This document shows, in pieces, positions 50,599-55,572 of a stretch of DNA of 64,000 nucleotides. The notes beneath the pieces were generated by a model. It saw only the letters and a program-made list of their open reading frames with translations, was not told the DNA's origin and did not search any database. Made by a program: the position numbers and the translations under genes. The DNA is from an uncultured Butyrivibrio sp. (lineage in GTDB: Bacteria; Bacillota; Clostridia; Lachnospirales; Lachnospiraceae). The stretch spans positions 12,993-76,992 of the forward strand of contig CAYPWY010000007.1 in assembly GCA_964414835.1 (NCBI GenBank), in the 5' to 3' direction. Numbering within the stretch: position 1 is the first letter of the stretch; each line of letters begins with the position of its first letter.

Positions 50599-51330
50599 TC
50601 ATTCATAACTCTCAATTAATTCAACTGCTGTAACATGCATCGTGTCGGAATTATAGGTAACTTTGACTCTGTCGCCAACAGTAATTATTTGTATAATATG
50701 ACCTTCAGAATCTGTAAAATTATCATTCATTTCACTGCTATAACCGCAAAATCCGAATATGTCACCAAATATTTCCTGTGTCATATATTCATCCTCTGTA
50801 CTATCCGGATAATATATTATTTCACAATCTGTCCCTGCTGCTCCATTTTCAAGACTCTCATTGATATTTTCTTTGTCCCCGTCTCTTATTAAATTTGTTA
50901 TCGGTCCAACAGTTCCATAAAAAGTGTAATCATTATTATATTCTGATACAGACTTGTATTCTTCGGCTTTCAAAATAATATCATCATCCGTCAAATATCT
51001 GTCTCCGTCAAAAATGGCGTAATTAAAATCCTGTCTATCCTTAACATTCATACTGCCATCATAGTGTATGACGGAACCGCTATATTCTATGATTACATCT
51101 GTCCCCTCCGCAAAATCGGTACCGCATTTGTCAACAATCATAGGATATTTCGTATCGGAACATAAATTCACAACATATTCTGTCTCTCTGTTTTCCCTGA
51201 TAATCCCAATACATTTCTTTATGGCAGACTCACTGTCGATTCCATTATCAACCTGCGCTTCACCATTTTTCTCAGCGCAGCCTGAACACAATATTATGAC
51301 TGCTGCTGCAACCAACATCCACCTATTCAT
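50599..51330 (-). CDS. Hypothetical acidic lipoprotein
   Basis: Lipobox CSG-C after a hydrophobic stretch; GAGG RBS. Confidence 0.7.
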   Translation of the reverse strand: MNRWMLVAAAVIILCSGCAEKNGEAQVDNGIDSESAIKKCIGIIRENRETEYVVNLCSDTKYPMIVDKCGTDFAEGTDVIIEYSGSVIHYDGSMNVKDRQDFNYAIFDGDRYLTDDDIILKAEEYKSVSEYNNDYTFYGTVGPITNLIRDGDKENINESLENGAAGTDCEIIYYPDSTEDEYMTQEIFGDIFGFCGYSSEMNDNFTDSEGHIIQIITVGDRVKVTYNSDTMHVTAVELIESYE

Positions 51331-51350
51331 AACCTCTTATACTCCCTTCA

Positions 51351-51647
51351 TTATTTACAAAAATTATAAAACATGCCATTACATTTATAATAAAAATTAT
51401 TTCCGGAATAATAGTACAACCTACTATCCGCATTATTTCCAATTACTGATAAATCCAAATAATTTAACACATATCCAGATTCAATATTTGGATCCATGTA
51501 AATATATCCATATGATTGGCTTATTCTAAATGCTCCGCAAAGTACAATAACATGATACACATCTACATCATAATCTTCACAAGAAATCCCTTGCATATTA
51601 CACATTATTGGACTGCCGCCACTTAATACAGATAATACATTTACCAT
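51351..51647 (-). CDS. Short protein resembling the C-terminal half of a papain-like (C39-type) peptidase, possibly a fragment
   Basis: YHVIVLCG...YIYMDPN His/Asp pattern without an upstream catalytic Cys region; own TTGACA-N17-TATTTT promoter and AAGGGG RBS. Confidence 0.45.
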   Translation of the reverse strand: MVNVLSVLSGGSPIMCNMQGISCEDYDVDVYHVIVLCGAFRISQSYGYIYMDPNIESGYVLNYLDLSVIGNNADSRLYYYSGNNFYYKCNGMFYNFCK

Positions 51648-53097: not shown

Positions 53098-53203
53098 CGC
53101 CGCGCCTCACACTGCTTGTATAAAATAATAAACATCCGTGCATTATGTATTTACCGGATGTTTATTATATCACTATTAAATTGATTTGTGTACACCTAAT
53201 TAC

Positions 53204-53242
53204 AAAAACAGTGTCATTACAAAACATGTAATGACACTGTTT
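53204..53242 (-). terminator. Terminator closing the peptide transcript
   Basis: Perfect 16-bp stem AAACAGTGTCATTACA/TGTAATGACACTGTTT with a T-run on the minus strand. Confidence 0.85.
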
Positions 53243-53276
53243 CCGTTACCGTTTTATGCTGCCGGCACAACGTCCA

Positions 53277-53345
53277 TCAACAGCCGACCCAAAAACGGCA
53301 ACTAATATAATAAATACTCTCCTGCAAAACCAGCCTTACGTGCAT
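53277..53345 (-). CDS. 22-aa micro-ORF MHVRLVLQESIYYISCRFWVGC (peptide, or frameshifted 5' gene remnant)
   Basis: GGGGAGG RBS only 3 nt before the ATG; lies before the terminator. Confidence 0.35.
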   Translation of the reverse strand: MHVRLVLQESIYYISCRFWVGC

Positions 53346-53380
53346 TTTCCTCCCCTGCACTTAAATCAATCAGGCTACGC

Positions 53381-53443
53381 TTATAACCCAAGAAGCTTCT
53401 TAAGCCACTCCCATACATCATCTATTAAGAGATTGACGCCCAT
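53381..53443 (-). CDS. 20-aa amphipathic peptide MGVNLLIDDVWEWLKKLLGL
   Basis: AAGGGAGG RBS 7 nt before the ATG; dedicated promoter; helical hydrophobic periodicity. Confidence 0.7.
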   Translation of the reverse strand: MGVNLLIDDVWEWLKKLLGL

Positions 53444-53473
53444 AACTGCACCTCCCTTGTGATTGATGAGTTC

Positions 53474-53544
53474 ATTATACATAGCCTTTCCAGAAAATGG
53501 AATAGCTTCCACTTAAGCGGTCATATTTTCGACAAAACGGTCAT
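53474..53544 (-). promoter_or_regulatory. LytTR-type activated promoter
   Basis: Direct repeats ATGACCGTTT (53535-53544) and ATGACCGCTT (53515-53524), 20-bp period, upstream of weak -35 TTCCAT-N17-TATAAT. Confidence 0.7.
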
Positions 53545-53549
53545 CATAT

Positions 53550-54851
53550 TCATAGGTTATAAGCCGGATTTTGCTTATTGTGAAGAATTATATGCAGTGA
53601 GTATATATTGTTGTCTGTGCTTATTGTCATGCTTCCATTATAATTGGCTACCGCATCACCTACGTTCACAAGCCCCAGCCCGTGATTTTCATAGTCAGCC
53701 TTGGTGGTTGCAATTACTCCGCCGTCAACATTCAGGCTGCCGGCATAATAATTGCTTATATTTATCATAATAAAGCTATTATCATACTTAAATTCCAGCC
53801 GGACGCTTCTCTTGTCAGCATCATCAAGCTCCGAGGCTGCCTCTATGGCATTTTTAATTATATTGGATATTATGGTACATAAATCATAACTGCTTATATT
53901 GACAATCCCCGGAAATCTGCCGCTGACATTGACGGTAACATTTTCCCTGTCAGCTGTAAATATATATTGATTGATTACCGCATCTGCAATGTCACATCCC
54001 ACTGAGATTCTGTTTACTGTCTGCGCCCCTTCTATATTATCCCTGACCTTCTCCATATACTCCGATAATTCTTCGTATTTTCCATTCTCAATACAATGCT
54101 CAATCACATTCATATGCGCCTGAACATCATGCCTGAATTTCCTGGTATTTTCCTCCTTTCTCTCAAGATATGCATAGTGCTGCTCCTGCATCTTAAGATA
54201 CTGCCTGTTAATCTCATCCTTCTCCTTATACACGTTCTTGGTGGCAGCCAGCATAAGAATGGTACCTACCTCAAAAAGCAGGCTCACCACTGCCAGATAA
54301 AATACGATGTATACACCCAGCGCATACTCCATGCTGAATATTGTATCCACCATAATCGTTATGACCATACCGTTGCACAGGCATACAACCAGCGTCAGAC
54401 CATAATAGGGCAGCCCGATTTTTACCCTGTGCCTGTAAAATCTGTTTGCCAGCCATCCCCACACTGCCACAACACAGGTTGTCACTGCTGCACCGATACA
54501 TTTTACAACTAATTCCTTCTCCGGGAAATCAGTTATCATATACCTTAACAGGCTGCAGCACATATAGTCCATAAACGACACTATAATTGCTGCCCACACG
54601 TCCAACACCAGAAGCTTCCATATTCTCCTGTCGTCAAACATTATCAGAGATGCCGCTACAATAAATACTAAATAAACGCCCATATTATATATACCGTTGG
54701 CAACCAGAACAACAATCGCTATGTACAATACAGGTACAGCAAGCATCAGCTTTGATTTTTTCCTCTGATGCAGGTCACTAAGTCCCCTTAATACAAGATA
54801 TAATTTTGCAAATTCAAGCAAATAACTTATTCCATAACCAATATACTCCAT
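53550..54851 (-). CDS. AgrC/ComD-like (HPK10, GHKL) membrane histidine kinase
   Basis: 6-7 TMs, RKFRHD H-box, NIIKNAIEA N-box and HGLGL. Confidence 0.9.
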   Translation of the reverse strand: MEYIGYGISYLLEFAKLYLVLRGLSDLHQRKKSKLMLAVPVLYIAIVVLVANGIYNMGVYLVFIVAASLIMFDDRRIWKLLVLDVWAAIIVSFMDYMCCSLLRYMITDFPEKELVVKCIGAAVTTCVVAVWGWLANRFYRHRVKIGLPYYGLTLVVCLCNGMVITIMVDTIFSMEYALGVYIVFYLAVVSLLFEVGTILMLAATKNVYKEKDEINRQYLKMQEQHYAYLERKEENTRKFRHDVQAHMNVIEHCIENGKYEELSEYMEKVRDNIEGAQTVNRISVGCDIADAVINQYIFTADRENVTVNVSGRFPGIVNISSYDLCTIISNIIKNAIEAASELDDADKRSVRLEFKYDNSFIMINISNYYAGSLNVDGGVIATTKADYENHGLGLVNVGDAVANYNGSMTISTDNNIYSLHIILHNKQNPAYNL

Positions 54852-54867
54852 TATTTCCTCCTTGGTA

Positions 54868-55572
54868 CTACGTTGTGGCTATCAGATTGCGCCACTTTAT
54901 CAAATTTGCTATAAACTCCTTGCTTTTCCTCCTGCTTATAGGTATTTTAGTCTGGTTTATCAGGTACAGCGTATCCTTTTCAAATCTGTCCACATACCGG
55001 AAATTTACTATGTATGATTTAAAAGGTATGCCAAATTCGTAATTCTTGAACACATTCCAAAGCTCCAGCATATTGAGATTTGCCTCAATATCATATTTTC
55101 TATGATGTATTATAACCTTGCGGAGCATTGTCTCAATATACATTACATCTTTCACGTACATTGGATGTATCATGGAAGTCTTTACGTCATAGATTTTGAC
55201 CATGGGGTTCTCCCTGTTAATGGCAGCCAATGCCAACATGGCTTCCCTGATTTCCTCCTCCATATTATTCTTGTCTATGTACCGAAAGGCATTGACCTTA
55301 TACCCCCTTCTGGCAAACTGTGTATATGATGTCAACATAATCGAACGGCTGTCGGGATGCATTTTGGAATAACTGCTGCATATTTCAAAACCATTCTGAC
55401 AATTTTCTCCTAACTCCACATCATAGAATACTATGGAATATTCAATTCCGGCAGATAAAAACTCTTCCCCCGAAGCATATTTATCCACACGTATGTTTTT
55501 TGCAAATATTTTTCTGATTGTTTTTACAGCTCTGTCCCTCCAGAGCTCTTCATCATCAATTACCGCTATCAT
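54868..55572 (-). CDS. LytTR family response regulator
   Basis: Receiver (IDDE, YDVEL, TS, YIDK) plus LytTR domain (MYIET..RKVIIH, SYIVNF, IPISRRK). Confidence 0.92.
   Translation of the reverse strand: MIAVIDDEELWRDRAVKTIRKIFAKNIRVDKYASGEEFLSAGIEYSIVFYDVELGENCQNGFEICSSYSKMHPDSRSIMLTSYTQFARRGYKVNAFRYIDKNNMEEEIREAMLALAAINRENPMVKIYDVKTSMIHPMYVKDVMYIETMLRKVIIHHRKYDIEANLNMLELWNVFKNYEFGIPFKSYIVNFRYVDRFEKDTLYLINQTKIPISRRKSKEFIANLIKWRNLIATT

Follow-up and report, generated by a model that had tools for sequence, protein, structure and literature searches.

The locus and its predicted peptide

We analysed a small putative signalling system on the minus strand of a 64,000-nucleotide stretch from the genome of an uncultured Butyrivibrio sp. 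(the window), in which the genes of a LytTR-family response regulator and a GHKL histidine kinase are followed by paired direct repeats, a predicted promoter and an open reading frame (ORF) of only 20 codons. The system is a real feature and would represent three-component peptide signalling in a new form. Its elements are listed below (aa, amino acids; L105 is a related locus from another genome).

54868..55572, minus strand: LytTR-family response regulator, 234 aa, REC and LytTR domains (Pfam PF00072, PF04397)
53550..54851, minus strand: GHKL histidine kinase, 433 aa, seven predicted N-terminal helices, H-box FRHDVQAH (His241), AgrC-like cytoplasmic part (PF14501)
53535..53544, minus strand: distal direct repeat ATGACCGTTT, predicted LytTR box; the same core lies 3' of the kinase stop in L105
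53515..53524, minus strand: proximal direct repeat ATGACCGCTT, predicted LytTR box, period 20 to ATGACCGTTT
53474..53502, minus strand: predicted activator-dependent promoter, weak −35 TTCCAT, 17 nucleotides, TATAAT
53451..53458, minus strand: ribosome-binding site (RBS) AAGGGAGG, 7 nucleotides 5' of the ATG at 53443
53381..53443, minus strand: micro-ORF MGVNLLIDDVWEWLKKLLGL, 20 codons, predicted amphipathic helix, net charge −1, of a family of 45 distinct peptides of 13–20 aa
53243..53380, minus strand: 138-nucleotide trailer with a hairpin (about 53245–53302) and a doubtful 22-codon ORF (53277–53345)
53200..53242, minus strand: intrinsic terminator, perfect 16-bp stem, 5-nucleotide loop, T-rich tail

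The kinase stop codon ends at 53550 and ATGACCGTTT begins five bases later. The ATGACCG heptamers of the two repeats lie at 53544–53538 and 53524–53518 (minus strand, period 20), TATAAT lies at 53479–53474, and the −35 hexamer, which agrees with TTGACA at 2 of 6 positions, overlaps a degenerate third repeat; relatives have TTTACA or TTTACT at the place of this weak −35. The first-pass annotation had put the repeats, the weak −35, the perfect TATAAT, the RBS and the ORF after the kinase stop, and all of them were found where it had located them. An exact ATGACCG pair at a spacing of 19–22 occurs only once in the 2.0-Mb assembly, and none of 100 mononucleotide shuffles of the promoter was as good as the real repeat pair. 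A consensus scan for promoters and terminators picked up neither the peptide promoter nor its terminator.

The unit had also been described as closed by a 16-bp terminator. The perfect stem is present (arms 53242–53227 and 53221–53206; fold z-score −8.7) and sets the peptide unit apart from the MATE gene's own promoter (53192–53164), but the trailer separates it from the ORF. The z-score of the whole transcript (−5.1) is due to inclusion of the terminator, as the trailer without it reaches only −1.9.

The predicted peptide has hydrophobic residues at positions 3, 6, 7, 10, 11, 13, 14, 17 and 18 and charged residues at 8, 9, 12, 15 and 16, and it contains no Cys, all as previously claimed. Its hydrophobic moment (0.825) ranks first among the 109 RBS-led micro-ORFs of 11–25 aa in its own genome. 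Searches with the peptide against Pfam, NCBIfam and PDB sequences gave nothing significant, and the sole resemblance to a bacteriocin in the PDB, ten residues of BacSp222, was non-significant (E 4–6).

The phospho-acceptor Asp51 of the regulator is invariant in its subfamily alignment, as is His241 of the kinase in 84 homologues. An AlphaFold model of the kinase (84 sequences; mean predicted local distance difference test score 91) places seven helices N-terminal to the coiled coil and lacks an extracellular domain; the loop charges fit an N-out, C-in topology. A Foldseek search with this model returned cytoplasmic structures of Staphylococcus aureus AgrC as its top three matches, and the best NCBIfam match was AgrC, at a score far under the cut-off (43 bits versus 500, E 4e-11). 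The kinase had been called a member of HPK10, which PMC3353171, in the part available, defines by a Tyr two residues after the His. The H-box FRHDVQAH has no Tyr at this position. Of the 30 H-boxes compared, 29 have L, I, F, M or V there and the variant box of locus L157 has M; none has Tyr. Lack of an H-box Pro and of D- and F-boxes, seen in the translation and in the consensus of the kinase alignment, is an HPK10 trait. Since the HPK10 Tyr is missing, "AgrC-like", with which the fold and profile matches agree, is the more exact term. Both proteins are divergent: apart from P0001, a copy of 96% identity, the closest kinase in a set of 1.84 billion representatives shares 37% identity, and the closest regulator shares 39%.

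The peptide gene in related loci

A family first came into view in genome G475, where an RBS-led ORF of 17 codons, its core W-L-K-x-L-G, stands before a related pair. Of 171 confirmed loci in GTDB genomes, the best 80, collected via the regulator alignment and nearly all from Lachnospiraceae or its genera, made up the survey sample, which was extended by 20 more stretches, half of them duplicates. Loci were divided by score, not by peptide, into clade A (regulator profile at least 235 bits, the window included) and a sister group B (190–220 bits). A micro-ORF was counted if it was RBS-led, 11–25 codons long and within 350 nucleotides of a locus complete on both flanks; a composition filter further required a moment of at least 0.52, two aromatic residues and a mean hydrophobicity of at least 0.5. 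Without the filter, micro-ORFs were found at 35 of 47 clade-A loci, 5 of 32 group-B loci and 2 of 18 other LytTR/GHKL loci; with it, the counts were 32/47, 0/32 and 1/18, where the genome background predicted 0.5 and 0.3. The 32 include L086, which is likely spurious (another frame of a longer gene), and L073 was missed because of an alternative start.

Because the filter thresholds had been chosen after 26 peptides had already been seen, they were frozen and then applied to newly fetched loci, and 13 of 21 new non-duplicate clade-A loci passed. The eight misses were inspected by eye: at L197 and L207 an ORF of this kind follows a weaker RBS, four loci have none, L206 looks frame-shifted and L204 seems interrupted by an insertion sequence. 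Since many of the loci are kin, with most of the new ones drawn from a single genus, they are less independent than the counts suggest. A relaxed-RBS scan (±1200 nucleotides) added the convincing members L069, L077, L085, L141, L105 and L159, but it also matched 12 of 36 group-B loci and was therefore too noisy for counts. Judged by this comparison of loci, such micro-ORFs are coupled clade-wide to clade-A kinase–regulator pairs.

The 45 distinct peptides of the family are 13–20 residues long (median 14) with a net charge of −1 to +2; Trp is present in 36 and Cys in 5, and six match [WF]x[ED]W[LI]x[KR]. The position of the peptide gene relative to the pair varies between upstream, between the two genes, and downstream. 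In 21 of 35 promoter rows, among which one locus appears twice, a direct-repeat pair at a period of 19–22 outscored at least 98 of 100 shuffles. A tree of kinase core and regulator was built from 57 rows and 447 columns, omitting loci that lack a full kinase as well as most of groups B and C; in it, the window clusters with L105, L064 and L165 at a support of 1.00. The anatomy of L105 comprises the kinase stop, boxes ACCGTTT/ACCGCTT at period 20, a weak −35, an RBS and a 19-residue peptide whose core, FWEWLRKLIGG, is near-identical to that of the window; a secreted-type protein and a VanZ gene come next. Two further peptides, with the cores WIEWIKKALGL (L157) and WIEWIRRLWGL (L109), also lie downstream of their pairs.

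BLAST of the peptide region against 22 genomes of the genus detected no direct homologue, the kinase query had no match in metagenome contigs, and the promoter motif of the relatives had none in viral contigs. A pattern of the peptide matched ten times in five genomes, of which the only exact match was L105's own ORF and the other nine had one mismatch. Eleven metagenome loci retrieved with a back-translated peptide pattern were rejected as unrelated frames with no kinase or regulator beside them.

The window frame is open for 23 codons upstream of the ATG, and the K-G-G read there is the RBS in frame. In 25 of 39 family frames, by comparison, a stop occurs less than 12 codons upstream (after two codons in L105 and none in L157), and an RBS-led upstream start exists in only 1 of 39. 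The earlier statement that there is no double-glycine leader holds, since the K-G-G of the window is an RBS and most frames of the homologues are closed. No C39 peptidase was found in the window's own genome (83% complete) or in any of five carrier genomes (two of them 99% complete), and neither AgrB nor C39 was found among the 88 scanned of 150 neighbouring ORFs at 26 loci. The further claim that the window has no agrB is correct for the window itself, but the genome holds a complete separate agr locus on contig C18 (L180:296-3240), where its single agrB lies with a 47-aa AgrD (TIGR04223) on one strand and its own regulator and kinase on the other.

Pheromones of the SHP/ComS type are short precursors trimmed by a protease. 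The peptide could likewise be a precursor trimmed by a housekeeping protease, or the 43-codon frame from a GTG could be a double-glycine prepeptide, as E-L-x-x-x-x-G-G stands before A-V-M in the 23 open codons, and window-type peptides vary in their first residues while the C-terminal core is conserved. However, the G-G is the in-frame RBS, the GTG has no RBS, stops close the frames of the counterparts L105 and L157, no C39 peptidase was found in the six genomes, and members of 13–14 aa leave little room for a leader. We consider a processed pheromone very unlikely, while trimming of a few N-terminal residues may occur.

Synonymous change in the relatives points to selection on the peptide. 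L071 and L073 encode identical 17-aa peptides, with seven synonymous and no non-synonymous codon differences, and ten close pairs, which are non-independent and were chosen for a peptide identity of at least 80%, have 20 synonymous and 2 non-synonymous differences. Another reading is that the ORF is incidental and that the transcript is a regulatory RNA in the manner of RNAIII or VR-RNA, or has no function. The trailer, with its hairpin and the strong terminator 3' of the ORF, would suit such an RNA, but without the terminator its fold is weak (see above) and no homologue of it was found among the fetched loci; the recurring element is the peptide, not the trailer. An Rfam scan gave nine matches, each far under its gathering score and none credible for the trailer, and the genome contained antisense matches to the trailer only at the frequency expected by chance. 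We regard an incidental ORF, with or without an RNA function, as scarcely credible.

Several features of individual loci were observed on the way. At L213:792-3643 (G428), a regulator–kinase pair outside clade A (180/291 bits) is followed by a 15-aa Trp-rich micro-ORF and then by the precursor of a plantaricin-C-like lantibiotic, and a promoter motif is repeated; from this locus, the peptide type may reach beyond clade A and control a lantibiotic. In L070, L076, L079–L082, L088, L102, L107, L108, L110, L126 and others, the peptide is preceded by a highly conserved 5' leader that contains GTATATACGGAAAGGA and a palindrome of the TTGTCCGGACAA type. This leader includes several GGA motifs and might pair with the RBS through its 5' end, which suggests translational control; this leader is not present in the window. 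In L071–L075 and others, an inverted repeat between peptide and kinase encloses a −10-like hexamer and overlaps the kinase RBS, and it could be a terminator, a promoter or a translation control. At L160:5300-6065 (the location of L109), a short precursor-like ORF and a PqqD-family gene come after the peptide without a maturation enzyme beside them, possibly a remnant cluster for a ribosomally synthesized and post-translationally modified peptide under the same promoter. L119, L133 and L136 (L161) have a regulator with an upstream peptide, no kinase within 11 kb, and leucine-rich-repeat and cellulose-binding-domain proteins on the 5' side. L162 contains tandem clade-A pairs, each with its own different 13-aa peptide, and a large Ig-like/RHS protein after the second.

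Co-variation of peptide and sensor

The loci L071, L072 and L074 are 96–98% identical in the regulator, 97–99% in the kinase core and 90–97% in the promoter, whereas their sensors are only 38–45% and their peptides 39–56% identical. The variable block consists of the peptide and sensor helices 1–6, and identity returns to 85–96% at helix 7. The peptide of L071 is also that of L073, a more distant locus whose core is 83% identical, and the sensors of these two are 57% identical. A hypervariable region of the same kind distinguishes the agr groups, as described in the available part of PMC10482373, and by analogy the peptide-plus-sensor block in L071–L075 would be a pherotype-like mosaic. Across 30 loci, the partial correlation of peptide and sensor, controlling for core and regulator, was 0.25 (reached in 0 of 500 permutations), compared with 0.07 for peptide and core (57/500) and 0.02 for peptide and regulator (188/500). 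Among 21 close pairs, rho was 0.73 with the sensor, 0.16 with the core and −0.18 with the regulator.

Slightly more than an even chance should be given to the reading that the peptide is a leaderless autoinducer of the AgrC-like kinase. A number of results weigh against it. In most relatives the peptide gene is 60–130 nucleotides from the sensor-coding end, so that block recombination alone can yield co-variation, and the kin loci in the analysis are not independent. L091 and L097 have sensors of 65% identity and dissimilar peptides, and sensor divergence is spread over the outer and inner halves, being only slightly higher in the outer one (mean identity 0.22 versus 0.25; 639/903 pairs). No conserved exporter was detected beside the peptide gene among the 88 scanned neighbours. 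Adjacent peptides are absent under the strict filter, itself set on peptides already seen, from 15 of 47 and 8 of 21 clade-A loci, and also from L165 and L064, whose kinases are the closest to that of the window by identity. Neither the genus BLAST nor the metagenome searches provided a close homologue of the window ORF with DNA context, and selection is evident only in relatives whose kinases are about 30–37% identical to the window's.

MgrB acts on PhoQ as a feedback peptide. A similar role in cis is conceivable here: the regulator-induced peptide would enter the membrane from the cytoplasm and damp or tune its own kinase, with no cell-to-cell role. Small proteins that bind kinases include Sda and KdpF (PMC10730256, in the part available). 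The lack of a leader and of a conserved exporter suits such feedback, and co-variation with the sensor is equally expected from it. It gives, however, no clear reason for a block of 38–45% sensor identity within flanks of 96–99%, a kind of allelic block that marks social signalling in agr, and it leaves a seven-helix kinase without an extracellular domain with no other ligand gene. We judge cis feedback to be unlikely.

The first-pass annotation had proposed either a leaderless pheromone or a membrane-active peptide resembling the phenol-soluble modulins (PSMs). The comparative evidence bears out its description of a leaderless amphipathic peptide driven by LytTR boxes without an agrB of its own; the pheromone fits better, because the peptides co-vary with the sensor half of the kinase and are near-neutral (−1 to +2), and the PSM-like effector is a minority rival. 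In that case the peptide would be mainly an output, PSM-like or like a leaderless bacteriocin, and the kinase would sense something else, or the toxin only secondarily. Size and amphipathy match those of the PSMs, which are directly activated by AgrA (available parts of PMC4227749 and PMC10482373); a resemblance to a bacteriocin exists only as the non-significant match to BacSp222. PlnA, a 26-residue membrane-interacting pheromone (PMC3769724, in part), is both pheromone and membrane-active, and therefore a dual role is possible. On the other hand, the net charge of −1 here and the family's charge range and median length speak against an effector, each locus has one copy, no conserved immunity or PSM-exporter gene occurs among the scanned neighbours, and a pure output need not track the sensor domain. 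A mainly effector function appears improbable.

Predicted targets and comparison with known systems

Among the 27 loci with an upstream peptide, 15 repeat the box pair of the peptide promoter directly 3' of the regulator. The genes found there mostly encode signal-peptide-like proteins without a Pfam family and MacB/FtsX or DUF1430 ATP-binding cassette (ABC) transporters, and at some loci RHS-type or amidase proteins. A degenerate box model for the window's own genome, built after these loci had been seen, gave 21 intergenic pairs, with zero mismatches only in the window and at G000:C23:9241. From there onward (L177:4241-10198), a box pair, a −10 and an RBS are followed by genes for a 133-aa secreted-type protein, proteins of 853 and 692 aa, and an ABC ATPase, which is the usual target layout of the family. 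From its boxes and layout, the C23 operon is likely controlled in trans by the window's regulator. Its ATPase reaches 110 bits with PmtA (cut-off 350), with similar scores for many generic ABC models.

According to the autoinducer reading, a basal amount of the peptide, made without a cleavable leader, would leave the cell, lie in the membrane interface as an amphipathic helix, and bind and activate the cognate seven-helix sensor. The signal would then pass through His241 and Asp51, and the LytTR partner would bind the paired repeats and switch on both the peptide promoter and the C23 operon for the secreted protein and ABC transporter. We infer translation, export, binding, an activating rather than inhibiting effect, and the C23 target.

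On its upstream side, the unit at 53200–55572 (minus strand) with the regulator–kinase pair adjoins a topoisomerase gene pair. The MATE gene was considered as a member of the system and rejected, because it has its own promoter and no MATE gene occurs among the 88 scanned neighbours of related loci. A 98-aa ORF and a 243-aa ORF with a lipoprotein-like start lie 3' of it (50599–51647, minus strand), with no Pfam match above the cut-off. The 22-codon ORF in the trailer has GGGGAGG just 3 nucleotides before its ATG, a moment of 0.39, and no family or homologue.

If the autoinducer reading is correct, surface-receptor and leaderless signalling would meet in a helix that has no leader and is read by a membrane kinase, and ligands would be at hand for part of the many "orphan" LytTR/GHKL pairs in Lachnospiraceae. 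It would also raise the question of peptide export and offer orthogonal inducible switches for gut commensals. Named isolates with the system are Roseburia lenta NSJ-9 (L072) and Eubacterium sp. AF36-5BH (L081), the peptides are short, linear and synthesizable, and L071, L072 and L074 would represent natural specificity swaps on a near-identical kinase core. In the literature covered, which did not extend to subscription papers and bioRxiv supplements, we found no account in which an AgrC-like kinase has a leaderless peptide as its partner, although small-protein catalogues may list single peptides.

ComC–ComD–ComE and BlpC–BlpH–BlpR are three-component pheromone systems whose peptides have double-glycine leaders. 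As in PlnA–PlnB–PlnC/D, a small peptide gene stands here beside a multi-helix kinase and a LytTR regulator under a paired-repeat promoter. Unlike the double-glycine systems (ComCDE, PlnABC), however, the window system has neither a double-glycine leader nor a C39-ABC exporter, its H-box lacks the HPK10 Tyr, and the targets in its family are predicted to be secreted proteins and ABC transporters, not classical bacteriocin operons.

With agr (AgrBDCA), the system shares the AgrC-like multi-helix kinase, the LytTR regulator and, in the relatives L071–L075, a hypervariable peptide-plus-sensor block within conserved flanks. It differs in that there is no agrB at the locus, the genome's agrB having its own agrD and pair on C18. 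AgrD is a propeptide of 40–50 aa with a ring Cys or Ser and a charged tail, as stated in the available part of PMC10482373, whereas the window peptide has 20 aa, no ring Cys, no acidic tail and no match to the AgrD profile. Like the PSMs and delta-toxin, it is an amphipathic helix of about 20 aa under a predicted LytTR-box promoter; unlike the PSMs, to which it has no significant sequence match, it is a single near-neutral peptide with no Pmt-type exporter adjacent, and the peptides of its family co-vary with the sensor.

The leaderless communication peptides (LCPs; SIP/RopB) are hydrophobic aromatic peptides from ultra-small ORFs beside their receptor, with no secretion or processing sequence; they are mostly 8–10 aa long and bind cytosolic RRNPP regulators, and the terms "histidine kinase" and "two-component" do not occur in PMC10518010, from which this description is taken. 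The available part of 10.1101/2024.08.13.607696 likewise concerns RRNPP systems, and its introduction describes Gram-positive signalling through surface receptors as based on a precursor from which a leader is cut off. The window system resembles LCP/SIP in having an ultra-small leaderless ORF beside its receptor candidate. Unlike LCP/SIP, it has family peptides predicted to be helices of 13–20 aa and a membrane kinase as the partner, and the window neighbours are the GHKL kinase, the LytTR regulator and a MATE transporter, with no RopB or other RRNPP protein. The chances are evenly balanced that these loci represent a quorum-sensing class of several genera of gut Lachnospiraceae, in which AgrC-like kinases of the membrane would have unmodified leaderless amphipathic helices of 13–20 residues as ligands, and in which peptide and sensor would be exchanged together as blocks, making up dozens of pherotypes; these would then be the first leaderless signals read by a surface kinase and not by a cytosolic RRNPP receptor.

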